IMG/VR virus record: IMGVR_UViG_3300025703_000003
Location: 1-53,125 of that record
Strand: one strand, 5' to 3'
Length of the DNA stretch: 53,125 nucleotides
DNA from: a virus
Lineage: Duplodnaviria > Caudoviricetes
Positions 5,164 through 42,964 of the stretch are shown here, piece after piece. The notes below the pieces were generated by a model that worked only from the letters and a program-made list of their open reading frames with translations, ran no database searches and was not told the DNA's origin. Position 1 is the first letter of the stretch, and every line of letters begins with the position of its first letter. The translations under genes were made by a program, and so were the position numbers.

Positions 5164-6017
5164 GATTCCTCCAGGTTGTCTATGTAGTTGTTCATTTCTT
5201 TCACTGCGTTGAATAAATCAAGTGACGCTTCGAAGGCTCGCCATGCGACGTGACGCGGAACTATTGCGAACGGGTCTTTCACTGATACGGTTCCGTCGCC
5301 GCCCAGGTAGATCGCGCGCGCGCCGTCAAGTTGTGGAAGAAACTCGAACGATTCGAGTTGTCCCTTCGCGTCGTAACGAGGCAACTGACACTGCATGTAC
5401 GCCTCGAACTGTTGAGAGACAGAATCGACGTACTCGCCGCCAGTTTTCCAGTCGCCCATCATCAGACCTTCCGCGCCAGGGCCGTCAAGTTCCACGATGC
5501 AGTCGAACCGTCCGCCGTAACTGAACTCACGATTCAGCACCACGCACTCAACGTGCTTGAACTTCGGCTTGTAGATCTTGTGGAAAGTCTCGAGCGCGTC
5601 AACGTACTTCGAGTCCTCGTCAAGCACTTCCACCGCTTCACCGCGGCTCCACCGCTCGGCAACGTCGTGGACGCGATTACCGCGTGTCGCCTTCGCTCGC
5701 CATTGACGGTCGAACTCACCGCGACAGAAGTGAACGTAGATTTCATCGTCGGTTCCGTTCTCTGCGAGTGTTCGGTTCTTAATCGCGGAGTCCGTCTTTC
5801 CTTTCGACGCAGCCAACTTCGCGCGGTGCGCCGGAACGATTGTTCGCTTCTTGCGTGAATTGAGTACGGCTGTCTCAGCGGCGATCTTCGATGAAGCCCA
5901 CCTCAACCCAGGTTTGTCCGCTATGGAAATCACCGACGTGACGCCGGGAACGAACGCGCCGCCCGGCTCGACGCGGTACTTGTGACGAAGGGCCTGGTCG
6001 AAGTCAGAGAGCGTCAT
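5160..6017 (-). CDS. PD-(D/E)XK (Cas4-like) exonuclease partner of Bet
   Basis: PGVTSVI, RGNRVH, YGGRFDC, GDWKTG and Q..AY motifs; adjacent to bet. Confidence 0.82.
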   Translation of the reverse strand: MTLSDFDQALRHKYRVEPGGAFVPGVTSVISIADKPGLRWASSKIAAETAVLNSRKKRTIVPAHRAKLAASKGKTDSAIKNRTLAENGTDDEIYVHFCRGEFDRQWRAKATRGNRVHDVAERWSRGEAVEVLDEDSKYVDALETFHKIYKPKFKHVECVVLNREFSYGGRFDCIVELDGPGAEGLMMGDWKTGGEYVDSVSQQFEAYMQCQLPRYDAKGQLESFEFLPQLDGARAIYLGGDGTVSVKDPFAIVPRHVAWRAFEASLDLFNAVKEMNNYIDNLEES

Positions 6018-6187
6018 ACCTCCACCTCCGCACGCAACGCAGCGACGGTTACCCGACACTGGTCGATGATGGCGTTGAGTAGTGCACTTGACTCCGCGTG
6101 CAGTTGACGCTCGTTGCGCAGTTCGCGCCTCAGTTCGTAGATGTCGCGCTGACATCCGTTGAGGCTGTGGTCAATTTCTTTACTCAT
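6014..6187 (-). CDS. small coiled-coil hypothetical protein, first gene of the recombination operon
   Basis: Start MSKEID behind a CCTGGAGAGG RBS. Confidence 0.6.
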   Translation of the reverse strand: MSKEIDHSLNGCQRDIYELRRELRNERQLHAESSALLNAIIDQCRVTVAALRAEVEV

Positions 6188-6217
6188 TATTTCCTCTCCA
6201 GGTACGGGCTGTTTGTC

Positions 6218-6261
6218 CGTATGATTCATCATACATTACCCTAGTTCGTGTGTGTGACAAA
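6218..6261 (-). promoter_or_regulatory. promoter of the exo-bet operon with operator copy 2 (6218-6235) and TGTGTGACAAA box (6251-6261)
   Basis: The minus strand reads TTGTCA-N16-TAATGT, overlapping the CGTATGATTCATCATACA palindrome. Confidence 0.65.
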
Positions 6262-6301
6262 GCCCCGAAAGCCCAATGATTTAGCGGGTTTTCGGGCTTT
6301 C

Positions 6302-6329
6302 AAATGACGAAGCGCACCCGAAGGTGCGC
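6302..6329 (-). terminator. intrinsic terminator at the end of the late operon
   Basis: Minus strand GCGCACC-TTCG-GGTGCGC followed by TTCGTCATTT; a second hairpin lies at 6259-6300. Confidence 0.75.
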
Positions 6330-6376
6330 CCCATCGCTACCCTGGAGAGTAGTCCCAAATCGTTTCCAGATTGGTG
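6302..6376 (-). ncRNA. putative ~75-nt small RNA with an anti-RBS hairpin loop
   Basis: Extended -10 TGcTAGGGT (6382-6390), GAAA-capped hairpin, CUACUC-UCCA-GGGUAG hairpin and UUCG terminator; predicted only. Confidence 0.4.
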
Positions 6377-6391
6377 ATTACACCCTAGCAC

Positions 6392-6973
6392 CTACACATG
6401 CGCGGCTCCGAACCACAGGGCCATCCGAGCCGGTACGATCATGCTCGCCGGTCGATCTGGAAAGAGCCCGAGACCCATGAGGACCATCGTACAATGAGTG
6501 CTGCAGATTATTGCATTGCCCCACGTACACGCCAACTTCGCGCCAGTGAGTCCGTCAGTGATTAGCGCGGGATATTCAAACCAGCCGTAATCAAGTCCCT
6601 GACACGACACGTCATTCGAGACGGCATTGGCTCTCAGTTCGTCGCTGACGTTGAAGTGAACTTTGGCATACAGGTGATGTTTGTAGTCGTAGAGTTGCCG
6701 ACGCTCGAAGCCCGCAAAACCCATCTCTGAGACTGCCGTGAGTCCGTCGATCGTCCCTCGAACGACCGCGGTGTGAGCGCACCAAGTGAAGCCTTTCAAG
6801 TCGGGCTCAGTAATAGTTAAAGCCTCTTGACCGAGCTTGATCGCGTCATCGGCCCACGTCCCGTGATCGATGAGAAGCAGGTCAGCGTCAGTCGCATCGG
6901 TACAGTTCTGACCCGCTTCGTACCACTCAATGGTGAATGACGGCACGACCAGAGTCATGCGATCGTTGGTCAC
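6392..6973 (-). CDS. permuted papain-like (YaeF/YiiX-type NlpC/P60) amidase-like protein
   Basis: His motif (AHTAVV) precedes G.DY and the C-terminal IICSTHC, which is the permuted catalytic order. Confidence 0.65.
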   Translation of the reverse strand: MTNDRMTLVVPSFTIEWYEAGQNCTDATDADLLLIDHGTWADDAIKLGQEALTITEPDLKGFTWCAHTAVVRGTIDGLTAVSEMGFAGFERRQLYDYKHHLYAKVHFNVSDELRANAVSNDVSCQGLDYGWFEYPALITDGLTGAKLACTWGNAIICSTHCTMVLMGLGLFPDRPASMIVPARMALWFGAAHV

Positions 6974-8379
6974 GCGAAGAGCGCCTGCACGGCCGCAAAT
7001 GCGGGCTTCGGGTTCGTGTCGCCCTCACTCTGCATGCTGTGAACGATGCCCCACCAGCCGTCACCGCCGACTTGACCTTTGTTGGCGTAGTCCGCGAAGC
7101 AGTAGACGAAGAACGCTTCGATGAGCGCGATGCCAACGGTCAGTTGAATCAACGCGACCAGTTGCGTCGCTTGCGATGCCTCAGTCATCTCAGGCAAACC
7201 GTTTCCGCTATTTGCTGTGTTCGATGGGAAGCCACCCTCGGTGACCCACGACGGCTTCGTGACTCCAGCCGCCGCCATGAACGTCTGCGTCTGACCGGCG
7301 AGCGTCACAGCAGGCTCATTGCTTGGATAGGTGTAGAAGTGCCAGCCGTCGTAGTCGATGGACTGAGCGAAGTTTGGTAGTGCCTTCAACAGAGCGGCGC
7401 GCCACGTGACGTTCGTTTGATTCACGCCCGACACCGGCGCGATGTGGACGAAGCACGTCGGGTCGGCGGCCTTGCACTGCGCGTAGACGAGAGGCATTGC
7501 AATCGCGTAGTCACTCGCCAAGAAGGGTACTGACCCGTTCCACTGGGCGTAACCATTCGGCTCGTTCGGCCCTTCGATGTGTGCGCCCTTGACCTGTGAG
7601 CAGAACCACGCGCACGCCTCAGCGTATGCCTCGGGCGAGTACGGCAGACCTGGTGTGTAATTCCCAACGCCCGTTGTCGGTGGCGTTGCGGACGAGATGA
7701 ATCCATCGATGAGAAAGAGAACCGTAATCCCATACGTCGCAGCCAGCGTCTTGATTGCATTCGCCTTCGTAGCGATCGCCGCGTTGAACGTCCCATCGGC
7801 GTTGTAGAACGGAATCCCGCCTTCGGCATCCCACTGGTCGTGATAGTTCCACGTGATTTGAGTGCGAACGTACTTCACGCCGAGAGTCTTCATCTGGGCG
7901 AGAGAGGCCGCGTCCGTCCCGCCATTCATACCGAGCGCGAGAGGCGTGAGCGGCGTTACAGGAATTGTGCACGTAGTCGTCAATGTCAAGCCTTCGCCAT
8001 AAGTGAGCGTCAACGTATAGATGTAACCAGGAATCATGTAATCAAACGCAAACGAGCCCGCAAGAGGTTGGTTGACCAGCGGCCCTGTATTCCACGGTCC
8101 AGAATTGCTCGTGTCGGTGCCATCACGTGCGAGTTCAACGGGCTCAACACCTGACCAACTAACCGTGATTTCGTTCGCGCCGGTCTGCTTCGCAGTGAAT
8201 GTTGTCACGGGAGGTGGCGGCGGCGGTGTGACTCGCGTCACGTAGACAGTCGTCGGTGGAAAGTCCTGGTGTCTGGCGTCCCATGAGCGAACAGGCTTAC
8301 CGTTCAGTTCGGTCAGTGCGACCAAGTTCGCCTTAGTCAGTTGTGTTTGGGTTGGGCCTACTGTGGCTTCGTCGCTCAT
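6970..8379 (-). CDS. clan GH-A glycoside hydrolase (GH5/GH39-like TIM barrel) with N-terminal module and FN3-like domain
   Basis: LGVKYVR, acid/base GPNEPN, GWHFY and nucleophile WVTEGGF motifs, C-terminal PKPAFAA; Pro linker. Confidence 0.8.
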   Translation of the reverse strand: MSDEATVGPTQTQLTKANLVALTELNGKPVRSWDARHQDFPPTTVYVTRVTPPPPPPVTTFTAKQTGANEITVSWSGVEPVELARDGTDTSNSGPWNTGPLVNQPLAGSFAFDYMIPGYIYTLTLTYGEGLTLTTTCTIPVTPLTPLALGMNGGTDAASLAQMKTLGVKYVRTQITWNYHDQWDAEGGIPFYNADGTFNAAIATKANAIKTLAATYGITVLFLIDGFISSATPPTTGVGNYTPGLPYSPEAYAEACAWFCSQVKGAHIEGPNEPNGYAQWNGSVPFLASDYAIAMPLVYAQCKAADPTCFVHIAPVSGVNQTNVTWRAALLKALPNFAQSIDYDGWHFYTYPSNEPAVTLAGQTQTFMAAAGVTKPSWVTEGGFPSNTANSGNGLPEMTEASQATQLVALIQLTVGIALIEAFFVYCFADYANKGQVGGDGWWGIVHSMQSEGDTNPKPAFAAVQALFA

Positions 8380-9452
8380 ATTTTTATGTACGCCCTGACT
8401 ATCTGTTGCAAGACCTGAAGGATCAGCTGCTCAGATTCACGGCTCAGCGCAAGGCCCATCGCCTTGTGAAGACCCTGCTCAAGTTCCTTGGCGCGCTTCT
8501 CGGCGTCCTCGAAAGTCTTGGATTCCTCTAGGCCGTGGAACTCGGTGCGCACCTTGTTGAGTATCTCTTCGAGAAACGACTCGTGGGCGGGGTTAGAGGG
8601 GGTATGAAGCGTCGGTGTCGCGTAGACCGTCGTCGGCGGGAAGTTCTGGTGCTTCGCGTCCCACGCACGAACGGGCTTGCCATTCATCTCCGTGACCGCG
8701 ATGAGGTTCTTCTCTTCCAGTAGTGCGGCTGAGGGCACCGGTACGGGTTTGCTCAACGGCACCAGAGAGGTCACGTCGCCTTGGCTGGCGAGCAGTGCGG
8801 CAAAAGTCTCCGTCGAGTAGTAGAAGTGCCCCTCCACGCCGTAGGACGTGCCCCAGGAGTTGACGAGGTGCCAGAGGTCGCTTGGGAGGTCGTAGCCGGT
8901 GCATTCGTACTCGTGACCGCCTCGAACGGTGGCTTCGCGAGCAATCGCAACAAGTCCACTCGCGTCAGGCGTGTCGAAACTGGTGTACCAGTCCGAGCCG
9001 ACCATGAACGGCCCCGACTGGATGGCGGTATGTGCGGCAGCGACCGAAAGGGCATGCAGATAGCCCGAGCAGAGACCCTTGGCCTGAGCGGCCTTCGCCA
9101 CTGAGAGACCCGACGAGCCATTGTCATTGGGTGGGTAGGGACCATCGCCGTCGATAGTCTCAGCCGCCGAATACAACGCCAGTGCCTCGTTCTCGTCGAG
9201 CACCAACCCAGCGGCGATGAGAGCCGCGAGGTCGCCGTCGTCGGGGTTTGTCCCAAGGATTCCAGTACAGGCGTTGCCCGTGCAAGATCCCACGTCGCCC
9301 TGGTTGAGCACCGGGATAACGCGGTCCCACTGGACGGTGACGATGGTGTCGGCCTCGGGGAGCACATACGCCAGCGAGCGTTCGTCGTGGTTGACATGCC
9401 TGCCCAATCTCTTTCCCTCGACGATGATTTCGGGAATTAGGCGAGTGGTCAT
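8376..9452 (-). CDS. papain-family (C1-like) cysteine peptidase with C-terminal extension
   Basis: NQGDVGSCTG, GGHEY and LVNSWG catalytic motifs. Confidence 0.85.
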   Translation of the reverse strand: MTTRLIPEIIVEGKRLGRHVNHDERSLAYVLPEADTIVTVQWDRVIPVLNQGDVGSCTGNACTGILGTNPDDGDLAALIAAGLVLDENEALALYSAAETIDGDGPYPPNDNGSSGLSVAKAAQAKGLCSGYLHALSVAAAHTAIQSGPFMVGSDWYTSFDTPDASGLVAIAREATVRGGHEYECTGYDLPSDLWHLVNSWGTSYGVEGHFYYSTETFAALLASQGDVTSLVPLSKPVPVPSAALLEEKNLIAVTEMNGKPVRAWDAKHQNFPPTTVYATPTLHTPSNPAHESFLEEILNKVRTEFHGLEESKTFEDAEKRAKELEQGLHKAMGLALSRESEQLILQVLQQIVRAYIKI

Positions 9453-14954: not shown

Positions 14955-15328
14955 TACGCAGATACCTCGAAGAATTTCACCGTCCAGGTGTCGACGTAAT
15001 CATTGAGCCACGTCGAGTACTGAACTGCACCGAGTGGGTCAGTCGCGGGGTCTATTCCAACGACCATCGTCGAAGTATCAGGGAAAGTGATCGTGAGTGG
15101 GACGCCCTCCATGAGCATTGCTTCTAGTGCCGCGTCGTTGGCGACAGAATTAGGAATCGCGATCATCGTCCACGTTCCACCACGTCGTATGACGTCGACC
15201 GAGAGAACCGTATACGGATAGTCGAGTGGGTAGTACGCCGCGCCGTTGGAGTGAAGAAGTGGCTTGTAGTCGGGGTTACCGATGAAGGTAATCGTCGTCG
15301 TGCCGTCAGTGATCGTGGCATCGCTCAT
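14954..15328 (-). CDS. distal tail-like protein
   Basis: Directly downstream of the tape measure gene. Confidence 0.6.
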   Translation of the reverse strand: MSDATITDGTTTITFIGNPDYKPLLHSNGAAYYPLDYPYTVLSVDVIRRGGTWTMIAIPNSVANDAALEAMLMEGVPLTITFPDTSTMVVGIDPATDPLGAVQYSTWLNDYVDTWTVKFFEVSA

Positions 15329-18045
15329 CGAACCACCGCCAGTCCTGAAGTGCCACCACGGAGTTCGGCGGCGAGTTGACGGAGCGCCTGGTCGATGTAG
15401 GTCTTGGTTGCATTAAGTGACGCTGCGTCATTGCCGGGCGCGGGATGAATGTTGATAGCCCCCGAGGCGATATTGAGCACTACTCCCCTGCTGAGAGACC
15501 GTGTCGGTGTGGGTGCGACTGGGGCTGACATAAAACCAATAGGAGTGCTCGCATTGGTCCCATTGAGATTCGCACCCGTCTGAGTCTTATACGCTGCGCC
15601 GATCGCCGCGCGATAGACCGAACCGGATACCGCGATGCCGTTTACCATGAGGGCCGTCAGAGACCCCGTGGTGGCAGTTGTCGCGGCCTTGACGGCGGCT
15701 TTGGCCTTCGCGGCGGCGGCTTTGGCTTCTTTTTGAAGTTCCGCTTGACCGGCGTCGGCGATCTTCACTGATTCGGCGGCGGTGAACCCGGCCTTCTCCA
15801 AGGCTTTCACGGAGTCAGTGAATGGCTTCACGGCGTCGTGAAGGGCCTGGGTCGCTTTGTTCGCCGGTACACCCAGGGCTTTGAGTTGTTCGACGCCTTT
15901 CGCGAAGGGCATCTTGATAGCGGTGACGACTTCACTAGTCAAAGTCGTCTGAGCCTTTACTGCATCTGCGGCTGATTTCTTGGCGGCGGCTGTCGCAGCA
16001 CTCGTGGCCTTCTTCGCGGCAGCGGCAGCGGCTTTGATTGCGACTGTGTTCGGCGGTGCGATGTAAGCGTCGACCTGTCGTTGATACTGCGCTGTGCCGT
16101 GCGTCGCCACGCTGTGCTTGTAGGCAGCAGCGTATGAAGCGCTCAGCGCACTCACCGCTTTCGTGTTCGTGTCGAGAGATGTCTTGCTGTCGGGTGTGAA
16201 TGAAAACCCGAAGAGTTTCGCGGCCTTCGTGTCGAATTTGTTCAACGCAGAGAGTTTCGAAGGACTGTTCTTGTCTAGCGCCGCCTGAGCATCATATTTC
16301 TGTTGAAATTGTGCAGAATTGTTCACCGTCCCGAACACTGAATTAGAGATGTCGTTGATAGCGCCGACAATCTGTTTACGACCGAGAATCGCTGCGGCGA
16401 CCGCGATACTTATCGGGTTGAGAAGTGAGAGAAACGATGCACCCATCGCCTTCGTCTCAGTTCCAACGACTCCCGCTGTTTCGGCGGTGGTAGTTCCAAT
16501 AGTCGCGATGGATGTATCAGCCAAACCCGTTTGAACCGCAACCTTATCCGCCATCGTCGTCGCACCACCTGACATCGTGACGAAGGCGATGACTGACCTC
16601 GCTGCTTGAGCAACGGCGGTAGCGCCCATCTTGATAAGCGCGGGAGCGAGAATGGTGGCAATAACAGCCTCGACCGCGTGCGCCTCCGTCGAACCCTTCG
16701 CGAACCACCCAACGACATCCACCAGTCCATTGATGACCGGAAGAATTGCCCCCGCGACTTTCGTCAATGCGGGAACGAGAACGCTGCCGAGTTTCGTCCC
16801 ATCGTCGCTGACGGCCGCGCCGAGAATTGCCATCTTGCCTTGAAGGGTCTGCTGTTCAATGGCCGAAGCCTTCGTTACGGTGTTGTTCTGATTCACTGCC
16901 GTTGTTGCTTTGTTGTACGAGTTCGTTCCAGCATCGAGAACCGCCGTCATCTGCTTCGCGGCCGAGGCACCGAAGATAAGTGTCGCCGTCGCCAACTGCT
17001 GTTGCTGAGTCATGGTCTTAAACTTCGGCCCGAGTTTTTCGATGATCGTTGACATCGGGGTTATTTGACCCTTCGCGTTCACGACTTGGATCCCGTATTC
17101 CTTGAGCGTGTCCCTTGCGGTGATGTTCGTCTTGGTCGTTCCAGTTGCCGCACCAGCCAACGCTGTGTACGAACCTTGCAAGGCTGTAAGAGCACCGCGA
17201 CCCGTAATCCCGTTATGAGTCAGGTCCACCATCAAGGCGCTGAGGTCTTTCAAGGGCGGGGCCAACGTACCGAGACGGCCCTTCACCCGCTCGACGCTCG
17301 CCGCCAAGGTATCGATACCTATCCCGGTGGCACGGCTCGCGTTGAAGAGCGTCTGCGCGGCACCCGCGGCCTGTGATACAGGTACCTGAAATGCCTGCAT
17401 GACACCGGCGAGCGTCTGCGTCGACGTGGTTAAATCGTTCCCACTCGCCGCTGCTAGGTCCATTGCGTTATTCATGAACGTCGTCGATTGAGCGGTCGTT
17501 AGCGCTTGACCCTGAATTGATTTGAGTTCGCCCGCTACCTGGGAGAACGCCTGGGCCTGCTTGATACCCGAGTACTCCGCTTTACCAGCCGTGTTCAAAA
17601 ACGCGTTACCGACGTTGGTCGCGGCTTTCACAGTGATGTTTTCACTGGTGGCAATCGAGGCGTTCGCCGTCTGCATGTCGATGGCGAGTTTGACCGACGC
17701 AGCACCGATTGCCGCTATTCCCAATGCCGCGACCTTGGGTCCGCTCAACAACGAAGCCGGGACACCGAGACTTGAGAGGGAACCAGAGGCTTTCTGCCCG
17801 ATGTCATTCCAGAGGCCCTTGATCTTGCCCGTCTCTGTTTCAGCGGACTTGACCGCATCTTTTCCGATGTCTTTCGCGCCTTTACCGAACCCACTTGAGA
17901 GCGCAGCGCCAGCGTCCGCACCGGCCGTATCGGCCTTGGACGCTAACGCGCCACCAGCGCTGAGGTCGGTTTCGGCAATGTCAGCTTTGACCGCTGAGGT
18001 ATTCGCTCGTACGACAATCTGGGCTTCGCCGACAGTGGTGATCAT
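15325..18045 (-). CDS. tail tape measure protein
   Basis: 906-aa Ala/Thr-rich helical protein, VGEAQIVVRA N-terminus, AMDLAAASG...IFG core; follows the chaperone genes. Confidence 0.92.
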   Translation of the reverse strand: MITTVGEAQIVVRANTSAVKADIAETDLSAGGALASKADTAGADAGAALSSGFGKGAKDIGKDAVKSAETETGKIKGLWNDIGQKASGSLSSLGVPASLLSGPKVAALGIAAIGAASVKLAIDMQTANASIATSENITVKAATNVGNAFLNTAGKAEYSGIKQAQAFSQVAGELKSIQGQALTTAQSTTFMNNAMDLAAASGNDLTTSTQTLAGVMQAFQVPVSQAAGAAQTLFNASRATGIGIDTLAASVERVKGRLGTLAPPLKDLSALMVDLTHNGITGRGALTALQGSYTALAGAATGTTKTNITARDTLKEYGIQVVNAKGQITPMSTIIEKLGPKFKTMTQQQQLATATLIFGASAAKQMTAVLDAGTNSYNKATTAVNQNNTVTKASAIEQQTLQGKMAILGAAVSDDGTKLGSVLVPALTKVAGAILPVINGLVDVVGWFAKGSTEAHAVEAVIATILAPALIKMGATAVAQAARSVIAFVTMSGGATTMADKVAVQTGLADTSIATIGTTTAETAGVVGTETKAMGASFLSLLNPISIAVAAAILGRKQIVGAINDISNSVFGTVNNSAQFQQKYDAQAALDKNSPSKLSALNKFDTKAAKLFGFSFTPDSKTSLDTNTKAVSALSASYAAAYKHSVATHGTAQYQRQVDAYIAPPNTVAIKAAAAAAKKATSAATAAAKKSAADAVKAQTTLTSEVVTAIKMPFAKGVEQLKALGVPANKATQALHDAVKPFTDSVKALEKAGFTAAESVKIADAGQAELQKEAKAAAAKAKAAVKAATTATTGSLTALMVNGIAVSGSVYRAAIGAAYKTQTGANLNGTNASTPIGFMSAPVAPTPTRSLSRGVVLNIASGAINIHPAPGNDAASLNATKTYIDQALRQLAAELRGGTSGLAVVR

Positions 18046-24245: not shown

Positions 24246-25979
24246 TTAGGCAATCGCGACCGTAGCGGACGATCCACCACGGGGGTGCGTCGTCGAGACG
24301 ATCTGAAGGACACCACCGGAGAAGCTCCGGTTCGCAGCACCCTCGAAGGTTTCCACGAAGGTCTCGTAATCGTTGGTCGAGTCCAATGTGGCGTCTCGGA
24401 CAACTCCGAGGTCAAGGCGACCACCGTCGAGGAACTGGATCGAACCCTCGATGAAGAGGTTCCACATGACCTCGGTCGGGTAGGCCGGGACCGCAGACGA
24501 GGCCGTGAATGCACCGAAGTTCTGGGTGACGTACGTTCCCGCACCGGCGTTGGCCGTCAAACCGTCCAATGACCAGATGACCTTCACGTTGTAACCCGCG
24601 AACCAGTCGTCAATCATGGCATCGGTGATCGAGAAGACGTCGTACGGACCATCAGACGAGTGAGCAAGTTCCAAGACTCGGTCCTGCTTGATGATGTCAC
24701 GACCCCAGATGGGGAAGATGCACGTCAGGGTCTGGTCACGGTTGAGGCGGTTCGTGAAGCGGTAGTTGGCCGACGTCTGGATGATGGTCGTGAACAAGTC
24801 ACGAGAGGCACCCAACTGCGAAGCCGACGTGATCGTGTTCGTCGCGAAGCCCTGAATCGCCGTCCACAGCGCCAGGTCCGCCGCTCGCGCGGTGTAGGCC
24901 ATAGCGAGGTCGGTGTTGGAGGCAATCGTCTCGGGGTCGAACTGACCCATGAGGTTACCGAACTGCAGGCGTGTGACCATCGCGTTCACGTAGGTCGTGA
25001 CCGGGCTTTCGCAGGTGATGGTCTGAACGTTCTTGACGCTCGCACCGGGGTCGGCATCGGTCGCTTCGGTCCATTCGGTGAAAGAACCCGACAGCGCACC
25101 GATGGTGTTCGGCTGACGGTAGATAAGCCCACCGCGATTGACTTGGAATGCAGCCAAACCGTCTCGGATTGGTCGCTCCTGACTCGCCCAGACGTCGAGC
25201 GAGTAGTCGACGTTGGTCGGCAGGCACACGCCACCAGAAGCGGCGATTGCTGTCGGAGTGGTTATTGCGTCGAGCTTCTTGAAGTCCTCGGCCGTCGAGT
25301 TGCCCGAGAGTCGTCGAGACTCGGGGTACTGGTCGGCCCAGCGTGCGCGAGCGATCTTCATCTTTCCGTTCGCGGCGGTCGGGTCGAGTCCTTCAAGGGC
25401 ATAGGACATCTCTTCGGCGAGGTCGTAGCGACCTTCGTTGCCGGTGGCGAACTCGTCACCGTTCGAGTGACGCTCGAGTTGACCAACTGCGACCAGGGAC
25501 GTGCGTCCCTTCGCCTCGGTCCTCAACTCAGGGGAGAGTGTGGCTCCGCGCGAGACGCTCTTCATCTTCGCGGGGCTCGAACGCAGTGCGGAGGCGGTGA
25601 CGGCGACCTTCTCGCCTTCGGTAGCGCCTTCGGTCTCTTCGGCGACGACCTCAGTCGTCTCGTCGCCCTCTTCGGGCTCTTCGTCCTCGGGTCCACCGGT
25701 CGCGGCCTTGATGCGGGCGCGCGCGGCGTTGCGGGCTTCGGCGGCAGCGGCCTTCTCTGTCTCGAGGGAGGTCTTACGTGCCGTCACGGAATCGGCGATG
25801 TCCGCCAACTCGACGATGGTTTCCAGTGTGGCGACCGAGTCGTCGTTGTCGTCGATGTTCGAATCGACTTCGAGGATCTCGGCCTGAAGGGTCGCGAGTT
25901 CGTCGGACGTGAGTTCGTTGATGAGAGTCGCGCGTGCGGACTCATCCTTTTCGGCCCTGATGGTTGAAAGAAGGCTCAT
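24246..25979 (-). CDS. major capsid (hexamer) protein with N-terminal scaffold-like region
   Basis: AIAASGGVCLP, VNRGGL and LDLGVVRDATLDSTNDYETFVETFEG motifs. Confidence 0.88.
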   Translation of the reverse strand: MSLLSTIRAEKDESARATLINELTSDELATLQAEILEVDSNIDDNDDSVATLETIVELADIADSVTARKTSLETEKAAAAEARNAARARIKAATGGPEDEEPEEGDETTEVVAEETEGATEGEKVAVTASALRSSPAKMKSVSRGATLSPELRTEAKGRTSLVAVGQLERHSNGDEFATGNEGRYDLAEEMSYALEGLDPTAANGKMKIARARWADQYPESRRLSGNSTAEDFKKLDAITTPTAIAASGGVCLPTNVDYSLDVWASQERPIRDGLAAFQVNRGGLIYRQPNTIGALSGSFTEWTEATDADPGASVKNVQTITCESPVTTYVNAMVTRLQFGNLMGQFDPETIASNTDLAMAYTARAADLALWTAIQGFATNTITSASQLGASRDLFTTIIQTSANYRFTNRLNRDQTLTCIFPIWGRDIIKQDRVLELAHSSDGPYDVFSITDAMIDDWFAGYNVKVIWSLDGLTANAGAGTYVTQNFGAFTASSAVPAYPTEVMWNLFIEGSIQFLDGGRLDLGVVRDATLDSTNDYETFVETFEGAANRSFSGGVLQIVSTTHPRGGSSATVAIA

Positions 25980-29257: not shown

Positions 29258-29650
29258 TCACTTAGCCTCACCCCCGATCGTGCCATGCTTGCCCTTCTCA
29301 CCAGGCTTGAGCGCGAAGAATGAACCCGTCTGACGATATTCGCGGTCTATCCGTGCTATGTCCTTGCGAAAGTTTCGTGAAGATTCGGATTCATCGTCTA
29401 GAACTCTCGACCCGAGGTATCCGTCGCTCATCCCAGTAGCGCCGAAAGGCAGGTCCACATCGCCACAGTTGCAAGGGACACTGGTGACTTCCTCGTCAAT
29501 CACGCTTGCTGCCAGGAGCATGTCGAACACGTCAGACTGCCAATTCTCGCGTTGTCGCGTCTGTCGTTCATCGATAACTCGGAATCCTCGCAACGGATAC
29601 CTCGGGTCGAGCGGCTCAGGCGCTAACCGGTGATTGCGACGTAGTTTCAT
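29258..29650 (-). CDS. hypothetical protein with its own operator/promoter (moron-like)
   Basis: TTGGAGGG RBS with operator copy 3 upstream. Confidence 0.6.
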   Translation of the reverse strand: MKLRRNHRLAPEPLDPRYPLRGFRVIDERQTRQRENWQSDVFDMLLAASVIDEEVTSVPCNCGDVDLPFGATGMSDGYLGSRVLDDESESSRNFRKDIARIDREYRQTGSFFALKPGEKGKHGTIGGEAK

Positions 29651-29664
29651 TTACCCTCCAAGTT

Positions 29665-29682
29665 TGTATGAGCAATCATACA
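29665..29682. promoter_or_regulatory. palindromic operator copy 3
   Basis: TGTATGAGCAATCATACA in the intergenic gap after the portal gene. Confidence 0.7.
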
Positions 29683-29693
29683 CAGAGACGAGA

Positions 29694-32378
29694 CTACTCG
29701 CTGGTATCCGCTGAATTTGCAGGGCCTACCCAGTTCGCCTGTTCATCGCAAATGCAGCCAAAATGGTCTCCGGCCAGGTAAAATGCTACCGGTGGCCAGT
29801 CATTTGGGTTGGCTAAAACGGGGTCTGTGAATGAATCGAACTCGACTCCATCGAGCGCTTCGTGAGGTTCAAAGGGCTTAGTCGAAGGTCCGTGGATCCA
29901 GGTAAACGACGAGGTTGAACAGCCTGCGCTCGTCAAGAGATTCGAGATTGTGGCACCTGACGCCACGCCACCAACACCGATTGTGTTCGGCAATGCTGGC
30001 ACCGTAGCTCCAGTATCGAGAACAACGTTCAGGAAGTCTTCCTTAGTCGCACCGCCCGCAACTCCCACCGCGCAACGAATCACGCCAGTTGGAACCAGTG
30101 TGTCAGGGTTCAACGCCTCGAGCGCCGCGTCGTCGGTCATGTTCGGGTCAGGGTTGTAGGCGAGGTGTTGTGCTATCTCGTCCATTGAATCCTTCAAGAC
30201 TCGCCAGCCCTTGTCGACGCCTTCGCTCATTGCGATGACTGCCGATGCAGACGACCCGAGTTCGTCGTCACCGCTGAGTTGTCGTGCGGCGGCTATGGCT
30301 TGGCGTTGGGCAAGTCCCGTCCATGACTTGAACTGCTCTTCGAGTGACGTCCAGTCGTTGGTGACGTAACTGGCGGCAACGATTGGGTCGATGTCGCCAG
30401 AGAGCCTGAGTGCAACGAATTCGTTTCGAGTCCTCGCGATCTTGGTCTTGAGTTCCTTATCCCGTGAGACGCTTTGGCGTACGCGGTGTGAAGCCTTTTC
30501 GAGTTGACGGCGCATCTCGGCGTTCGCGGCGACTTGGAGTTTCATGCGCAGGTCTGAGTCGATCTGGGTCAACTTGCGAGAAAGTCGAAGTTCCTTGTCG
30601 GTCGGTCCGACCTTCGCTGCTGCCGTCAACTGCAACATTGGCTGAGAGAAAACGTCGATTCCACGTCGAGCGAGTTCCATCTTGAGCACGCGAACCATCA
30701 TCTCTCGGTCGGCGTCGTCGTAGTAACCACTGGCGAGGATGCTGCCGTTCTCGTTGCTCGGCAGTGGGTTGGTGACTGTGCCGGTCGTGGGCTCGGGAAC
30801 GGTCGTCGCCGGCGTCGTGATGGGCGTTGAACCAATCGCTGCTGGCGTGGTTTGAGCAGGAACGTCGAGACCGCCGGGGTCGGTCGCAGTCTCTGCCTTG
30901 AGTCCGGGGATGATGCCGGGCCCGGGGATGGCGGGGAAAGCCAGTTCGGGGTCCAACTTGTGCAGCAGGGCGATGAGTGCGTTGACCGGCCACGTACGGG
31001 TGTCGCTGATGAGACGCACTTCGATCTCTTCGCCGCTCGGAGCATCAGAGTCCTTGAAGCCGAGGTACTTGCGAAGCGCGGCGGCAGAGATGACTCGCGC
31101 GTTGTAGGCGGTGATCGCAGAGGCTGAGAGGTCTGGGGGAGTTACTAACTCAGTCGGGTCGTACCAGAAGACCAGACGTGAAATCCATGCATCGACGACT
31201 GACTTATCGAGTCCACACGTAGCGAAGTACGGACGAAGGAACGCACCGGTCAGGGCTTCGACGAGCTTGATGACGTGTATCTCAACGTGATAACGAAAGG
31301 TGTTTGAATCTATTTGAAAGATTCCCCAATGGTTGATGTCGGCGAGATTGAAAATCTCCTTCGGAAGGTCCAAGCCCGTAGCGACAACACCGACGAGTTC
31401 GTCACGAATCTTTCCGGCCTGCTCGTCGAAGACCGACGCGAATTCAATCCACTTGATCTTGCTGATCTGATCGCCGGGGGCTTGGACGACTAACGGAACA
31501 ACGCCCGAAGCATCGCCCTCGTTGCGAATAGGCGTCATCATGGCCGTGGTCAATGTCGAAAGGAACTCGTCGGAGTCGATATTCCCGTTGTCGTCATTGA
31601 GATTCGGGACGGACATCTCAGAGGGCAGGAACAGGATTCCCCTGCCCGCAAGACGTGAGCGACCCGTCGCGCGAATCAATCGGCGCATGATTTGCAGGTC
31701 TTCGCAGGTATTGATCAGTGCCCGCATCGGCGACTGAGCGAGAAGTCTGAACTGGGGGTGCGGCTGCCACATCCTCTCTACGAGAGCGTCTTCGGGCAAG
31801 TCAATCAATCCAAGAACACCCGTGTTGGTCATCGGCCCTTCGCGCAGTTTCACGTAGTCGTCGTAAATTACTATTTCGGAGACTGAACGAATTGAGTAGA
31901 CGTTCTGCAAGGTCTCGGGGTCCGTCAGTCCTAGAAGGAACGCTTCTCCGGTAACGGAGAAGTTCAGCGAGAGTTGCTCCAAGATGTTTGATATTGCCAG
32001 ACGTCCGTTACCAAGGTCCGTCATGGCGTTCGTGCAGGCTGCAATGACCTCGGGCGGCGTTTCGAGCAACGGGTCAGTGATGTCGAGCGGCTTGTCAGTC
32101 TCCCCAATCAATGGATACGCGGCCGGAAACAGCCGCATCCTTGATGCGCAGTGCGCGAGGAATCCGTGACCGTAGGACAACTCGGGCAGAGAATTGTGCA
32201 TGCTCCATGCCTGCAACTGCCAGTTCTGACGAAGCATCCTCTGTCGTTGAGCCTCGACCTTGTTGCCGACCTCAATCTCACTCGATGCCGCAGTAAGCGC
32301 GCGGAACGGTCGGTTCTTCTTCTTGTTCTCAGTGGCGCGCTGGTGTCGGTCTTCCCACTTCGTTGTCTTGGTCGCCAT
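29694..32378 (-). CDS. portal protein (with C-terminal extension)
   Basis: WQLQAW, SRMRLF, WQPHP, RSRLAGRGILFLPSE, VVPLVV, GLDLPKEI and NHW motifs. Confidence 0.85.
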   Translation of the reverse strand: MATKTTKWEDRHQRATENKKKNRPFRALTAASSEIEVGNKVEAQRQRMLRQNWQLQAWSMHNSLPELSYGHGFLAHCASRMRLFPAAYPLIGETDKPLDITDPLLETPPEVIAACTNAMTDLGNGRLAISNILEQLSLNFSVTGEAFLLGLTDPETLQNVYSIRSVSEIVIYDDYVKLREGPMTNTGVLGLIDLPEDALVERMWQPHPQFRLLAQSPMRALINTCEDLQIMRRLIRATGRSRLAGRGILFLPSEMSVPNLNDDNGNIDSDEFLSTLTTAMMTPIRNEGDASGVVPLVVQAPGDQISKIKWIEFASVFDEQAGKIRDELVGVVATGLDLPKEIFNLADINHWGIFQIDSNTFRYHVEIHVIKLVEALTGAFLRPYFATCGLDKSVVDAWISRLVFWYDPTELVTPPDLSASAITAYNARVISAAALRKYLGFKDSDAPSGEEIEVRLISDTRTWPVNALIALLHKLDPELAFPAIPGPGIIPGLKAETATDPGGLDVPAQTTPAAIGSTPITTPATTVPEPTTGTVTNPLPSNENGSILASGYYDDADREMMVRVLKMELARRGIDVFSQPMLQLTAAAKVGPTDKELRLSRKLTQIDSDLRMKLQVAANAEMRRQLEKASHRVRQSVSRDKELKTKIARTRNEFVALRLSGDIDPIVAASYVTNDWTSLEEQFKSWTGLAQRQAIAAARQLSGDDELGSSASAVIAMSEGVDKGWRVLKDSMDEIAQHLAYNPDPNMTDDAALEALNPDTLVPTGVIRCAVGVAGGATKEDFLNVVLDTGATVPALPNTIGVGGVASGATISNLLTSAGCSTSSFTWIHGPSTKPFEPHEALDGVEFDSFTDPVLANPNDWPPVAFYLAGDHFGCICDEQANWVGPANSADTSE

Positions 32379-38767: not shown

Positions 38768-41701
38768 TCACGCGCTGCGCTTCTCGCGGATCCGTCTCGC
38801 GATTTCGCTCTCTTCGGCGGGTGGTGTCACACGAGGCTTGGGTCCGGTTCCTACTGGTGAAGAGATCGTCGTTGGTCCGGTTCCGTAGACCTCGTTGATG
38901 TAGTACGTCAATGCGTCAACGATGTCGTCATGTGCCCCGTGGTTGAAGGCCGTGCAATTATGAACCGTTCCTCCGGTAGTTACATAACTCTCATCTTCGT
39001 CAACGTGAAAGTTAATCACCTCGCATGGCCCTGTATCGGCCACGCTTCGAACCCAGAAACCGAGTAACTTGTCGCCGTCGTCATCAGCCCACACCTCCGT
39101 GGTGCGAGATTTTGCATTCATATCGACGGTGAATGTCGTGTGCCGACCTTGAATACGACGCTCGGGGTGAAATCGTGGAGTTGCTCGCGTCAATTTGGGC
39201 CACACTCCCATACGGGTGGCGATCAATCGCATCCCCCATGCAAGATGAGGCGAGACCGTAGTACCACGCCCATCGTGACCGTCTCCATCAAGCCATCCGT
39301 CAATAAGACCCTGATGAAATACAAGAGGTGCAGCCCATGCCCACTCAGGGATTCTCTTACCAAATGCCTTATGCCCAAAGGATTTAAACCAGCGCTCGAG
39401 ACGCGGAAGGCTCGCACTAACCACGGTGCAGTTTGGTGATCGAACTGCGGTGAATGTCGCTGATCGAATGCCAAATCTATCTAAGAGCAATGACTGAATC
39501 TCGTCGATAAAGGAAATCTCCGCTGCATTGAATGACCACTGGGCTCTTCCTGACGAATAACTGCCCTCAGCAAGCCACAGGCCACAGAATCGACCGAAAT
39601 CGTAATCAAGCTTCTGTGCATATTTCAACGATTGAGCGCGAACACTGTTGACGCTGATGTATTCACCGTCATCGGTCACAGTGAGACTTCGAGTTCCGGA
39701 TTTTGGCTCTCCTGGGTAGTCGTACCATTCACGAAGATCGATTGACTCCACCTCATAGTCCTCGTCGAGCACAGGAAAAGTAAGCGCGTCACTCATTTTT
39801 GGAGACGGCTGAAGCGTTCCATTCGATACTCTGCGAAACGCACGAGGTGAAAGTTCGCCAGCCGCTTTCCACGCAATCGCTTGGGCGAACTTGCCATTCG
39901 GTTCACTAGCGTTGCTCATCACCATAGAGAGGACTGGATGTTCCGGAGTAAGGCGCAAAGGATCAAGCGTCTTAGCAGTCAACTCGATAGTCGCAGGGGC
40001 TTGACGACGGCTGACTTCCAGAACTTCGCGGAATCGTCCCAGATGGGTTAAAACCCAGTCTCCCACTACAACTTCGCTTGCTTCGATTACACCTCGTCGT
40101 GTGAATATCATGGTATTTATACTAACGCACTCATCAATGAACTGTTCGACGTCAAAGGTCAACTCTGGTATGGCTTTTGATACCGCGACTGACGGGAGAT
40201 AGATGTTGCCGGAACGAATGATCGGGCTCGCGGCTTCCGCGCGGGCTTCCTTCGATGAGGTTGGGTTGACGGGTATCAATCCTGCAATTTCGTGACGTAG
40301 GGCTTTGTGAACCTCGGGACCGTTCGCCCTGTTCTCGAAGTACTTTCGCTTTGCCTGAGGGAACAGCATTGAGACTCGCCTCATGGCGTCAATCGTCCTC
40401 GGCAGGCTGAGTCTGTCGCGCACCTGATAGATGAGAAATGAGTCCGCGCCCTTCTTCGCCCAGACCTGACCGACAACGAAGTCGCTCGTCTTGGTCTCCT
40501 TGAAAGCGAAGTCCCAGGATTGGACGAGTTCATAGCCTCCTTCGACGTGGAACGCGCCGCCGTGCTGAACCCACATCACTCGCTCGTAGCGTTGCCACCA
40601 TTCACGCAGAAGGATCGCTCCGGTGCCCGGTGTCGGATTCCCCTGATACAGCGCGGACCAGTATCTTGCTGACGTCGCGTTCTTCGTCGCCTCCCAGTCA
40701 GCGTTCGTTCGACCACGAGCTGAGACCATGTACTCGCCTACTTCACGCCCAAGGATGTCACTCTCACCCTTGGCAGCGTTGAAGTCAGCCTGGGCGGGGA
40801 TGTTGACCACCGTCCAGTCGTCGTAGTCCTTCACCCCGCTCATGATGTCCTCATCACGCTTACGGATCAACTGCCCTGCAAGATCGTTGTCTGACCATCT
40901 CGTCATCGTCAACATTACGGGCGCCCACGGTGCCAAGCGAGGTCTGGCGGTCGTCTCCCACCACTCCATGTGCTGGCGCGATTGCAACGTTGAGTCTGCG
41001 GCTCGGATGTCCTTCACCGGGTCGTCGATGTTCATCAGGTCTGACGGGTGGCCGGTAAGACCACCGCCAATGCCGATCGCGTACACTCCACCACCGGTCT
41101 CGAGCATCCACCGGCCCATTGCCTTCTGGTCCCTCATCAGACGAAGCCCGATGTCGACGTTGTTCGAGGTGCCGTCAAAGAGTTCGATGTCGCTTCGCAC
41201 CTGATAACTGAACTGACCGGCGTTCACCCCGTCGTAGGAAACCAGCGTGATTCGAAGCGCCGGGTACTGACGTAGTAACCATTCAAGCCCGTAGCGACTT
41301 ACGCGGCTCGACTTCCCTTCTTGTGGGCTCATGCTCAGAATCAGGCGAGTGATGCCACGGCTCGGGATCTCTTCGGTCGCTCTCTCAATGGCGATCTTGT
41401 CGTTGACTCCTTGCGCTAGTAGTTCCTGCAACCGTCGACGTCGTGCGTACATGACCTCGATGGCCTGACTGATCTGCACGAGTTTCGAGTCGATTATCGT
41501 CAACGCAGGGGTTTGGACGGTGGCCGGGTCTAAAGAAACTGCCAGGTCACCGGGCGTCGGATACTCCATGATCCGCTGAATCCTGCGTGTCTCTACACGC
41601 ACTAATTCCTGTTCGTCGGGTCTCAGCGCGTTCCACTTGGCTCGACGTTCGGCCTCGGGGAGTTTGATGAACTCTCTCGCTGAGGGTGAGAGTAGTTTCA
41701 C
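38768..41701 (-). CDS. terL: terminase large subunit, intein-containing
   Basis: Walker A-like MSPQEGKS, Walker B NIDDP, MTRW, LYQGNP, QSWD, SDF, ENRANG and HDDIVDA motifs. Confidence 0.93.
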   Translation of the reverse strand: MKLLSPSAREFIKLPEAERRAKWNALRPDEQELVRVETRRIQRIMEYPTPGDLAVSLDPATVQTPALTIIDSKLVQISQAIEVMYARRRRLQELLAQGVNDKIAIERATEEIPSRGITRLILSMSPQEGKSSRVSRYGLEWLLRQYPALRITLVSYDGVNAGQFSYQVRSDIELFDGTSNNVDIGLRLMRDQKAMGRWMLETGGGVYAIGIGGGLTGHPSDLMNIDDPVKDIRAADSTLQSRQHMEWWETTARPRLAPWAPVMLTMTRWSDNDLAGQLIRKRDEDIMSGVKDYDDWTVVNIPAQADFNAAKGESDILGREVGEYMVSARGRTNADWEATKNATSARYWSALYQGNPTPGTGAILLREWWQRYERVMWVQHGGAFHVEGGYELVQSWDFAFKETKTSDFVVGQVWAKKGADSFLIYQVRDRLSLPRTIDAMRRVSMLFPQAKRKYFENRANGPEVHKALRHEIAGLIPVNPTSSKEARAEAASPIIRSGNIYLPSVAVSKAIPELTFDVEQFIDECVSINTMIFTRRGVIEASEVVVGDWVLTHLGRFREVLEVSRRQAPATIELTAKTLDPLRLTPEHPVLSMVMSNASEPNGKFAQAIAWKAAGELSPRAFRRVSNGTLQPSPKMSDALTFPVLDEDYEVESIDLREWYDYPGEPKSGTRSLTVTDDGEYISVNSVRAQSLKYAQKLDYDFGRFCGLWLAEGSYSSGRAQWSFNAAEISFIDEIQSLLLDRFGIRSATFTAVRSPNCTVVSASLPRLERWFKSFGHKAFGKRIPEWAWAAPLVFHQGLIDGWLDGDGHDGRGTTVSPHLAWGMRLIATRMGVWPKLTRATPRFHPERRIQGRHTTFTVDMNAKSRTTEVWADDDGDKLLGFWVRSVADTGPCEVINFHVDEDESYVTTGGTVHNCTAFNHGAHDDIVDALTYYINEVYGTGPTTISSPVGTGPKPRVTPPAEESEIARRIREKRSA
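38957..40129 (-). mobile_element. intein with LAGLIDADG homing endonuclease (391 aa)
   Basis: Starts CVSINT, block B LTPEHPV, endonuclease motifs GLWLAEGS and GWLDGDG, ends VHN followed by Cys+1. Confidence 0.92.
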
Positions 41702-41850
41702 TTACTTCGCATGAAGTGTTCAGCCAGGACTTTCCTCACGAACGCAGAGGGTGCGATGTTGAGCGTCGAGGCTTCGTGTTCGATTCTCGCTCGCAGTTCG
41801 GGTTTGACTCTGACGTGCAGGAGTTCGGTTCGGTTCTGGCGCTCAGTCAT
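41698..41850 (-). CDS. ribbon-helix-helix DNA-binding protein
   Basis: LHVRVKPELRARIEHEA.....SAFVR pattern. Confidence 0.68.
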   Translation of the reverse strand: MTERQNRTELLHVRVKPELRARIEHEASTLNIAPSAFVRKVLAEHFMRSK

Positions 41851-42033
41851 CGTGGGTCGAATCTCGCGCAGCAATTGAACCCCGAATCCCAGTTGTGGAA
41901 TCGCCGCTGAATTCCGCATCGCGCGCACTTCTTTTCACCTGCCAACGCGTCTTCGTGTTTCTTCTGCCATTTACGGTCAGCGCGAGCCTGACGACGTTCC
42001 TCACGACTCCACCTGGTTAATTCATCCCAGATG

Positions 42034-42399
42034 TCAGCCATTCGGCCACCGATCGAAGACCACGCCATCGGGCATCGTTACTGCACCGTTCGGCGCTCGA
42101 ACTGGCATGGCCTTTAAGACCACGGCCGGCGTGTGCTTGGCGTCACGCTCACCCTTGTCAATCGCCATCTCGATTGCGACGAGGACGAACTCGGTCTTCG
42201 TGCAGTTGAGTTTGGCGACCTGCTTCAAGAGTCTCTCGTTGAGGTCGTCGGAGATTCGACAGGAGACGGTGTTAGCCACGATCTTCTTTCTCGAACGTCC
42301 GACACGGACAGCGGCCCCATAGCGTGGTTTCGTGGTTCCCGTTGCATCCTGTGTAGAGCGGTCGCTTGCCGAAACCAAAGGCAAGAGTTCCGTGGTCAC
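42034..42399 (-). CDS. ribbon-helix-helix domain protein
   Basis: VSCRISDDLNERL.......TKTEFV..AI pattern. Confidence 0.62.
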   Translation of the reverse strand: MTTELLPLVSASDRSTQDATGTTKPRYGAAVRVGRSRKKIVANTVSCRISDDLNERLLKQVAKLNCTKTEFVLVAIEMAIDKGERDAKHTPAVVLKAMPVRAPNGAVTMPDGVVFDRWPNG

Positions 42400-42628
42400 C
42401 GATTGAGTGGCCGCATTTGCAGATCATTGGAAGCAACTCGTGTTCGGCTCGTCAAGGTCGAGCGGCACCATCATCGCCGCGGTCAATTCGGCCATGAACT
42501 CGTCCTGGGCTTTGCGTCGTTTGAAATACCACCAGCGAATCTTCATTGATCGCGGAATCATGATGAACGCCTTATTGGGATCGCGGTTACGCCTCGCGAC
42601 CGATACTCGCGATTCAGAGATTCCTATT

Positions 42629-42964
42629 TCACTCATCGTTACTGACTCCGTGAACTTCGAGCATGTGCCTATTGAAGTCAGCGCGAACTCCCGCCATCAT
42701 TTCTTTCGAATCCTCGTCGGGTTCACAACTGTCCATTGCGTTGTAGCCGCAATATATGCAGATGATTCCGAGGCTCAACGTTCCTGGCATCAGGTAGATG
42801 ACGTCACCGTTCTCATCAGTCAATGGGTGAGTTCCGACGACCGTTATGTTTCCGTGTTCGCCCGGAGCCCAGTCAGCACTTGAAACGATCTGCACCCCTT
42901 TGAATGGCCTGAACTGAACGTTGTCGAACACCTCCACGAACGCGTCGTCAGACTCTTTACTCAC
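42629..42964 (-). CDS. hypothetical protein
   Basis: Coupled ORF with CxxC and HxxxxH. Confidence 0.55.
   Translation of the reverse strand: MSKESDDAFVEVFDNVQFRPFKGVQIVSSADWAPGEHGNITVVGTHPLTDENGDVIYLMPGTLSLGIICIYCGYNAMDSCEPDEDSKEMMAGVRADFNRHMLEVHGVSNDE

Follow-up and report, generated by a model that had tools for sequence, protein, structure and literature searches.

A conserved three-hairpin element behind the late genes of a likely actinobacteriophage carries a candidate antisense partner for operator-linked leaders

Does a hairpin encoded behind the late genes of a phage control, by antisense pairing, the translation of genes scattered elsewhere in the same genome? The question is raised by IMG/VR record IMGVR_UViG_3300025703_000003, a complete virus record of 53,125 bp that bears direct terminal repeats and that we analysed over its whole length (the window, to which all positions refer unless another genome is named). 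A 159-nt gap behind the last gene of its tail/lysis block contains, on the minus strand at 6390-6304, an element of three hairpins (HP1 to HP3), and the second of these, HP2, is complementary to the leaders of the first genes behind four palindromic operators. A sequence-only reading of the window had proposed the element as a small RNA (sRNA) that silences those genes, and the sequence elements and leader coordinates on which it built are all present as it described them.

The element begins 1-3 nt past the upstream stop codon, which in the window is the TAG at 6394-6392 (minus strand) of the open reading frame (ORF) 6392-6973. Because no terminator lies between this stop codon and HP1, late transcripts must carry the element. 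Its first feature on the minus strand is TGcTAGGGT (TGCTAGGGT, 6390-6382), a candidate extended -10 element or else the 5' edge of the module, with a predicted transcription start near A6375. HP1 (CCAAUCUGGAAACGAUUUGG, 6374-6355) is the GAAA hairpin noticed earlier and is weak, consisting of 4 bp, an internal loop and 2 bp around the GAAA. HP2 (CUACUC-UCCA-GGGUAG, 6352-6337) carries the anti-leader seed ACUCUCCAGG at 6350-6341. HP3 (GAUGGGGCGCACC-UUCG-GGUGCGCUUCGUC, 6335-6306) is a 13-bp UUCG hairpin and possible terminator, at the foot of whose stem UUCGUC pairs with GAUGRR. Two more hairpins follow the element ahead of the next promoter; the hairpin at 6300-6259 (minus strand) holds the box ACCCGCTAAATCATTG (6289-6274), then CUUUGU, and is a possible terminator, perhaps a bidirectional one, or a protein site. 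Read in this way, the gap would encode a small structured non-coding RNA module of ~72 nt if it ends at HP3 and of ~115 nt if it ends at the following hairpin. An Rfam scan found no family at gathering threshold over the whole window, and a sub-threshold scan of the gap taken to E 10 gave seven matches, all far below the cut-offs and none of them to the c4, CI or 6C RNA families. Two reading frames across the element were rejected as coding by comparison with L026, a related metagenome contig: a 36-aa ORF at 6391-6281 is stopped early there, and a plus-strand ORF at 6304-6480 has no start codon.

The presumed targets are four cassettes on the minus strand, each made of a TGTATGA-N4-TCATACA site, a short leader and a first gene. 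All four sites stand, but they had been taken as strict palindromes, and the one at 6218, which reads CGTATGA...TCATACA on the plus strand, is one mismatch away from that form. The cassette at 1129-1087 has its operator at 1129-1112, the leader CUGGAGAG at 1103-1096 and the AUG of a short ORF at 1087. In the cassette next to the element, a promoter at 6260-6218 (TTGTCA-16-TAATGT, or TATGAT, hexamers that were read by eye) overlaps the operator TGTATGATGAATCATACG at 6235-6218, and the leader CCUGGAGAGGAAAUA at 6202-6185, with its core CCUGGAGAG at 6202-6194, leads into the AUG at 6187-6185 of a 57-aa gene, which is followed by genes for an exonuclease and RecT. The third cassette (29682-29650) comprises an operator at 29682-29665, the leader CUUGGAGGGU at 29662-29653 and an AUG at 29650, and the fourth (49657-49613) comprises an operator at 49657-49640, the leader CCUGGAGGGU at 49626-49617 and an AUG at 49613, together with the promoter-like TTGCAA-16-TATGAT listed by a promoter scan. 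With TATGAT in the left palindrome arm, or TAATGT just before it, placed 16 nt from a TTGNNN hexamer, the cassettes look like sigma-70/SigA-type promoters overlapped by an operator; one was listed by the scan and the others were read by eye. A reading of the palindrome as a LexA-type host site was considered and dropped.

What the cassettes have in common beyond the palindrome is the leader motif YTGGAGRG. It occurs four times on the coding (minus) strand, and all four occurrences are operator leaders, each 5-9 nt upstream of the start codon of the first gene behind its palindrome; a count of this kind was one of the checks that the sequence-only reading had proposed, and it came out in its favour. 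On the plus strand the motif occurs twice, once at 6342, which is the candidate itself, and once at 12296, inside a gene. About six occurrences of an 8-mer of this degeneracy are expected per strand in 53 kb, so that the mere presence of a matching 8-mer is unremarkable; its position in the gap and in a conserved hairpin is what is remarkable. The leaders fall into two classes, CTGGAGAGGAAA in the cassettes at 1112 and 6218 and YTGGAGGGT in those at 29665 and 49640, and because they form two pairs of alike leaders the four cassettes are not four independent observations.

We scored the 16-nt HP2 core against translation start regions (TIRs) taken from a rough gene call. The operator leaders ranked 1-4 of 98 TIRs in the window and 1-4 of 85 in G001, a collinear relative. 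The leader of the 57-aa gene was the top-ranked TIR, at -18.9 kcal/mol, and the leader of the RecT (bet) gene (CCUGGAGG, 5175-5168, minus strand), which had also been named as a partner, ranked 6th of 98. When all ~53,000 14-nt windows of the sense strand were compared with the four leaders, HP2 came first, at -17.5 kcal/mol against -14.2 kcal/mol for the next best; it also came first in the same scan of G001, at -16.3 against -15.2. None of 300 dinucleotide shuffles of the 159-nt gap reached the observed -17.5 kcal/mol, the best of them scoring -15.0. Full cofolding, which charges the opening of both HP2 and its target, ranked the leaders of G001 1-4 of 84, and the net gain after HP2 opening was -4.5 to -16.1 kcal/mol. 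These results identify HP2 as the anti-leader element of the genome without establishing action in trans.

A blastn search with positions 5900-7000 found no match among cultured phages, and relatives were found by pattern searches of IMG/VR and metagenomes. G001 is a collinear IMG/VR genome of 52,964 bp with 67-85% identity to the window in blocks, and G002 is a 10-kb fragment bearing the same cassette type. L026 is a contig of 1,068 bp with the order of the window, namely the 193-aa gene that ends at the gap, the gap itself, the 57-aa gene and the exonuclease gene; it is close to the window, with a 4-fold site identity of 0.64-0.87, and G001 is more distant. G001 has the same four cassettes at collinear positions and with the same two leader classes. 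The homologue of the cassette at 1129-1087 lies at 49406 in G001, and the cassette at 29682-29650 is identical in G001 and G002. On the G001 sense strand four of the five occurrences of YTGGAGRG are operator leaders, and CTCCAGG is found twice on that strand in G001 and once in the window.

The three-hairpin element is real, structured and conserved. The gaps of the window, L026 and G001 all have the same order of parts: TGnTAGRGT, a 5' hairpin, an HP2 with CUCCAGG, GAUG, a UUCG hairpin, the box hairpin and then promoter, operator and leader. Each of the three sequences folds alone into HP1, HP2 and HP3 (z -4.3 to -6.4). The sequence of HP1 is not conserved and a hairpin stands at the same place in all three phages, as GAUUCC-UUUG-GGAGUC in L026 and AUCGCC-UUCG-GGUGGU in G001. 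HP2 has a paired insertion in L026 (CUUACUC-UCCA-GGGUAAG), and in G001 (CUUCC-CCUCCA-GGAAG) an A-U pair has become U-A and a U.G pair C-G, with a loop of 6 nt. In HP3, L026 differs by two compensatory pairs and G001 by more, and the base GAUGRR/UUCGUC is kept. The pairing of HP2 and HP3 is thus kept through compensatory changes, whereas HP1 and the flanks differ, and the CUCCAGG of HP2 is retained in the window, L026 and G001. In a MAFFT alignment the paired indels of the two hairpins fall in wrong columns.

TGNTAGRGT occurs once in the window and once in G001, both times at the start of the element. The site reads TGCTAGAGT in L026 and TGATAGGGT in G001, where it overlaps the stop codon of a different gene: the gene before the gap is the 193-aa ORF in the window and L026 and a Ro60 homologue (TROVE and Ro60 vWA domains) in G001. 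Because the module starts at TGnTAGRGT behind different genes, it has the appearance of a portable unit. The box of the following hairpin is likewise invariant (AAACCCGCTAAATCATTGG), being identical in L026 (~485-520) and G001 (42848) and near-identical at 15155 of G001 and in G002. It was also observed that the box lies in a hairpin loop 35-38 nt upstream of operator palindromes and that G001 has it in both orientations (an inverted copy is near 40743); possible roles of the box are as the loop of a terminator, as the site of an activator or as part of a promoter.

The best single explanation that we can offer, and we offer it tentatively, is that an RNA containing HP2 regulates the four cassettes by pairing with their leaders. 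We infer a stable RNA species that would arise as the late transcript's 3' end, from a promoter of its own (TGcTAGGGT), or by both routes. HP2 would present the C-rich sequence CUCUCCAGG to the extended Shine-Dalgarno (SD) sequence YUGGAGRG, which on the coding strand is confined to the leaders behind the four promoter/operator cassettes. Pairing in vivo would mask the ribosome-binding site and keep the first gene of each cassette from being translated. The RNA could act in trans on all four and, when the adjacent operon of the 57-aa, exonuclease and RecT genes is part of a read-through RNA, also in cis on that operon. Control would then have two tiers, with a protein at the palindromes first and the RNA second. 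The description of the silenced set as early, recombination and accessory genes proved too neat, because the cassette at 29665 is embedded in the structural block, with the portal gene on one side and the head-morphogenesis genes on the other; 29665-29682 is in itself an odd location for an 'early' operator.

Several observations weigh against this explanation. The seed had been placed in the hairpin loop, and HP2 does carry it, but the loop is only UCCA and the stem arms hold the remaining 6 of the 10 seed nucleotides, so that most of the seed is inside the stem and only 4 nt are unpaired in the window and L026. Full cofolding ranks the leaders of the window 1, 3, 8 and 34 of 98, and when the whole 20-nt HP2 with its stems is used, coding sites score equally well or better genome-wide and in the window the leaders do not come out on top. 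Because the four leaders share one motif, pairing with all of them follows from pairing with one. Conservation is judged on three sequences from about two lineages, and since L026 is close to the window, conservation of the loop alone counts for little. Covariation of loop and leaders, a signal that had been suggested as a check in related genomes, was not seen: in G001 a U of the seed has become C with all four leaders unchanged, which keeps the pairing with two leaders and leaves a C.A mismatch with the other two.

The leader motif also occurs apart from any such hairpin. In G003, a phage of 75.9 kb that shows no tblastx similarity to the window, cassettes lie at 12008, 22494 and 25234 with the palindrome core GTATGA-N4-TCAT, two of them with the full TCATAC arm. 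Two of its cassettes have the leader CACTGGAGAG (CACUGGAGAG), and the third, which is mismatched, has a different leader. No intergenic anti-leader hairpin was found in G003, where the sole CTCTCCAG on the relevant strand lies inside a region coding on the other strand, and the leader motif can therefore exist without an RNA of this kind. The presence of the cassettes in G003 suggests a shared host factor or a horizontally moving cassette of promoter, operator and leader.

The two ends of the proposed RNA call for similar caution. HP3, described earlier as a UUCG terminator, is a stable hairpin of 13-15 bp in all three sequences, but it lacks a clean U run (the next letters are UUCGUCAUUUG in the window and UUCGUCGCGU in the relatives, and a U run is absent in two of the three), and it is missing from the list of a strict terminator scan. 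At the other end, the motif that the sequence-only reading took for an extended -10, TGnTAGRGT, is unique as well as conserved. In Streptomyces the -10 consensus is TAGRRT. TGnTAGRGT fits the mycobacterial extended -10 type, and the conserved unit begins with it behind two unrelated genes, as would suit a promoter lacking a -35. In mycobacterial promoters the -10 is the only conserved signal and is strengthened by a TGN motif (PMC1616969). Since the capsid and portal relatives described below are actinophages, an extended -10 promoter is credible at this site. No conserved -35 was seen upstream of TGnTAGRGT in the aligned sequences, however, and RNAalifold pairs AGRGU with ACYCU of HP2, with G.U, A-U and G-C in the three sequences. 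In this model a structural role of AGRGU within a long transcript is an equal alternative to a promoter, and both sources of the RNA may hold.

Action in trans has an alternative of its own. We predicted the structure of the read-through RNA between the stop codon and the 57-aa gene, and in the minimum-free-energy structure of the window the HP2 core pairs with the SD sequence of that gene. Out of a possible 9, the probabilities of these pairs summed to 8.0 in the window, 7.4 in G001 and 1.2 in L026. The folding suggests that the element could keep the next operon from being translated on read-through late RNA, whether or not it also acts in trans on the other three cassettes, and on this modelling cis action on the read-through RNA is as plausible as trans action.

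An account that needs no regulation at all is that the element is the plain structured 3' end of the late operon, which stops transcription and protects the mRNA from 3' exonucleases, and that the leader match is a by-product of a C-rich, anti-SD-like loop. Such a 3' end would be expected where the element is, immediately behind the stop codon with no prior terminator and so in late transcripts, and two further hairpins precede the next promoter; covariation of the stems would be just as natural in a terminator or stabiliser, similar cassettes occur in G003 with no such element, and many coding sites pair as well with the whole HP2. We place this account next after pairing, yet think it rather doubtful, because all three phages keep CCAGG, the part that fits the leaders' non-SD extension YUGG, no other window in either of two genomes is as good an anti-leader as HP2, and TGnTAGRGT is conserved and unique in a module that travels as a unit behind unrelated genes. 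It is improbable, in our judgement, that CCTGGAGRG instead acts as a double-stranded DNA site of a phage or host protein, in five copies of which one is inverted, the hairpin being incidental. The plus strand at 6341-6349 does read CCTGGAGAG, the same as the leaders, and Pope et al. left open whether RNA or protein recognises a comparable motif of Cluster K phages (PMC3203893). But the distance from palindrome to motif varies over 2-16 nt, whereas that from motif to start codon is constant, as for a ribosome-binding site, and a DNA site gives no reason for an inverted copy to lie in a hairpin with covarying stems, here and in Cluster K1.

Nor did domain scans identify a protein for such a site. 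They covered 40 window ORFs against Pfam, 20 of these also or only against PHROGs, and within this set no operator-binding or other DNA-binding protein was identified; the sole hint was ORF 41698-41928, with a weak sub-threshold NikA-like match. RegB cuts GGAG in early T4 messages, and the YUGGAGRG of the leaders could likewise be the target of a protein, whether a RegB-like endoribonuclease or a translational repressor, with HP2 unrelated or a decoy. A protein target would suit both the sharing of the motif with the cassettes of an unrelated phage that lacks HP2 (G003) and the missing covariation of seed and leaders. We nevertheless consider it improbable, as neither Pfam nor PHROGs pointed to a candidate protein among the scanned window ORFs and the conservation and exact complementarity of HP2 would be left unaccounted for.

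Pairing between HP2 and the leaders, the explanation that we prefer, has a counterpart in mycobacteriophages. The start-associated sequences (SAS/ESAS) of Cluster K phages are 13-bp SD-containing motifs conserved beyond what 16S rRNA can pair with (PMC3203893; PMC11373665). SAS stand immediately ahead of the start codons of 11-19 genes, each of which comes after a large gap (PMC3203893), and half of them are preceded by an inverted repeat, later recognised within a SigA-like promoter and thought to bind a regulator (PMC3203893; PMC11373665). Whether RNA or protein, and of host or phage, binds the SAS 'remains to be determined' in the original description, which also notes that K1 phages have a single SAS copy in opposite orientation (PMC3203893); the role of SAS is still called unclear in the literature of 2024 (PMC11373665) and 2025.

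We found that in Anaya the reversed SAS (59870-59882) lies in a gap of 385 bp that separates gp96 from gp97, and that it makes up the 10-nt loop CCUCCUAUCC of a strong hairpin. The reversed SAS of Adephagia, at 58682-58694, also lies in a 10-nt hairpin loop; its hairpin, at 58650-58710, is in the gp92-gp93 gap, in which late transcription 'appears to initiate' (PMC11373665). Conservation of the gap extends to 182 records. We examined 13 phages, 11 from these records together with Anaya and Adephagia, and a hairpin with conserved loop and covarying stem is present in six (Anaya, Adephagia, Tiri, Peanam, Validus and SgtBeansprout). The reversed motif is absent at up to three mismatches from the other seven (Amgine, Amohnition, Krueger, Shandong1, Unicorn, KiSi and Keshu), a further point to the disadvantage of the pairing explanation.

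The window and Cluster K share an SD-containing motif conserved beyond the SD and placed in gaps behind a SigA-like promoter with an inverted repeat, and the window and Cluster K1 share a single reversed copy of the motif in a covarying hairpin. The sequences themselves differ and the phages are unrelated at the DNA level; the SAS consensus GGGATAGGAGCCC has three matches in the window at up to three mismatches, against 10.9 expected, and none at an operator leader. The window also has 4 cassettes rather than 11-19 SAS, each of its motifs has a palindrome, and its reversed copy is at the 3' end of the late block rather than in a 5' leader as in Cluster K1. By this comparison the likeness is one of design, not of descent. 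In the literature searched, supplements aside and papers partly in excerpt, we found no proposal that the reversed K1 copy encodes an RNA partner.

The P1/P7 c4 and P4 CI RNAs are processed from the leader of the operon that they control, belong to temperate elements and act mainly by premature termination. The analogy drawn to them in the sequence-only reading is apt in that the window RNA would work alike, as a phage small RNA acting in trans by short complementarity to ribosome-binding sites or leaders and layered on protein regulators. It does not extend to kinship or setting, as there is no Rfam match, the window element lies at the end of late genes and, as that reading had also remarked, no integrase or CI was found among the window ORFs scanned. 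The actinobacterial 6C sRNA binds its targets via C-rich loops and without chaperones (PMC6486639). HP2 resembles it in presenting a C-rich sequence on a hairpin, in the few G-C pairs that it would form with G-rich sites without Hfq or ProQ and in the probable host group; it differs in lacking any sequence or Rfam match, in having a loop of 4-6 nt on a single such hairpin and in being phage-encoded with phage leaders as targets. The sRNAs of PAK_P3 were considered as a precedent for anti-SD action and rejected, since the paper on them proposes other targets.

The likely host is an actinobacterium, as judged by the relatives of the capsid and portal proteins. The major head protein has actinobacteriophages as its nearest cultured relatives (155 records, 33-37% identity), the 877 cultured-phage records matching the portal are nearly all actinophages, and the relatives of RecT are mixed. 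The window has a GC content of 57%, and its minus strand carries nearly all genes. Read down the coordinates along this strand, small genes without assigned function at the upper coordinates are followed by the large terminase gene (38768-41701), the portal gene (29694-32378), the head genes, including that of the major head protein (24246-25979), the tape measure gene (15325-18045) and then tail genes, a papain-like peptidase gene (8376-9452) and, directly before the gap, two ORFs without assigned function (6970-8379 and the 193-aa ORF 6392-6973). After the gap, the Pfam and PHROGs scans identify an exonuclease, RecT, an endonuclease and a Dam methylase behind the 57-aa gene. No tRNA genes were found in the window.

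Two side observations concern other genes of the window. The large terminase ORF is 977 aa long, and its terminase match spans residues 107-528; residues 524-596 match an uncharacterised family and, faintly, a ribonucleotide reductase family, and this stretch may be an inserted domain or an intein. Among the minus-strand starts, 46902/47245 and 44906/46227 are gene pairs with near-identical 25-nt upstream sequences. Two of these four upstream sequences begin cctacacctgaaacggagg(a/g)gtgaaATG and two begin cccctaaggagccgtaaATG; the pairs are probably tandem paralogues, or else they reflect another repeated start-associated motif.

The searches for relatives returned few real loci. In IMG/VR, the operator-plus-leader pattern gave ten stretches, of which five were kept on inspection (two in G001, one in G002 and two in G003) and five were judged to be chance, and the HP2-HP3 pattern gave 25 stretches, one of them real (G001). 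The box-plus-operator pattern matched only G001 and G002 in IMG/VR, the G002 contig and L026 in metagenomes, and nothing in genomes. Protein-anchored searches of IMG/VR with the exonuclease and a 469-aa protein gave nothing, and the search with the 193-aa protein led to two distant loci whose downstream arrangement differs. In genomes the operator-leader pattern had five matches, which were spread over unrelated taxa and were taken as chance, and no host regulon was found by this search. Separately, G001 has a match to the Y RNA-like family YrlA at about 40998-41111, just upstream of its Ro60 gene (41169-42761 of G001), scoring 39 bits against a gathering score of 69 (E 5.6e-6). This YrlA-like match lies behind a promoter resembling the operator cassettes, and the window has no YrlA or Ro60 genes.

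To our knowledge, the phage-encoded regulatory RNAs on record are few. In the literature searched, some of it in excerpt, we found no actinophage regulatory RNA that controls a whole phage gene set via a private ribosome-binding motif. If the pairing model is true, it would be a new variant of phage antisense control, and HP2 is a concrete candidate partner of the leader motif that is open to mutational test. The more useful part may be the parallel in Cluster K1, where the phages are culturable and engineerable in M. smegmatis; the RNA-seq data for Adephagia are public (named in PMC11373665). By analogy between the two systems, one can imagine, though we think it unlikely, that actinobacteriophages share a riboregulatory design in which a private extended ribosome-binding motif marks a gene set and one reversed copy, in a hairpin on the late transcript, shuts the whole set off as late transcription rises. 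If true, this would be the first mechanism for the start-associated sequences that were described in 2011 and called unexplained in 2024-2025.

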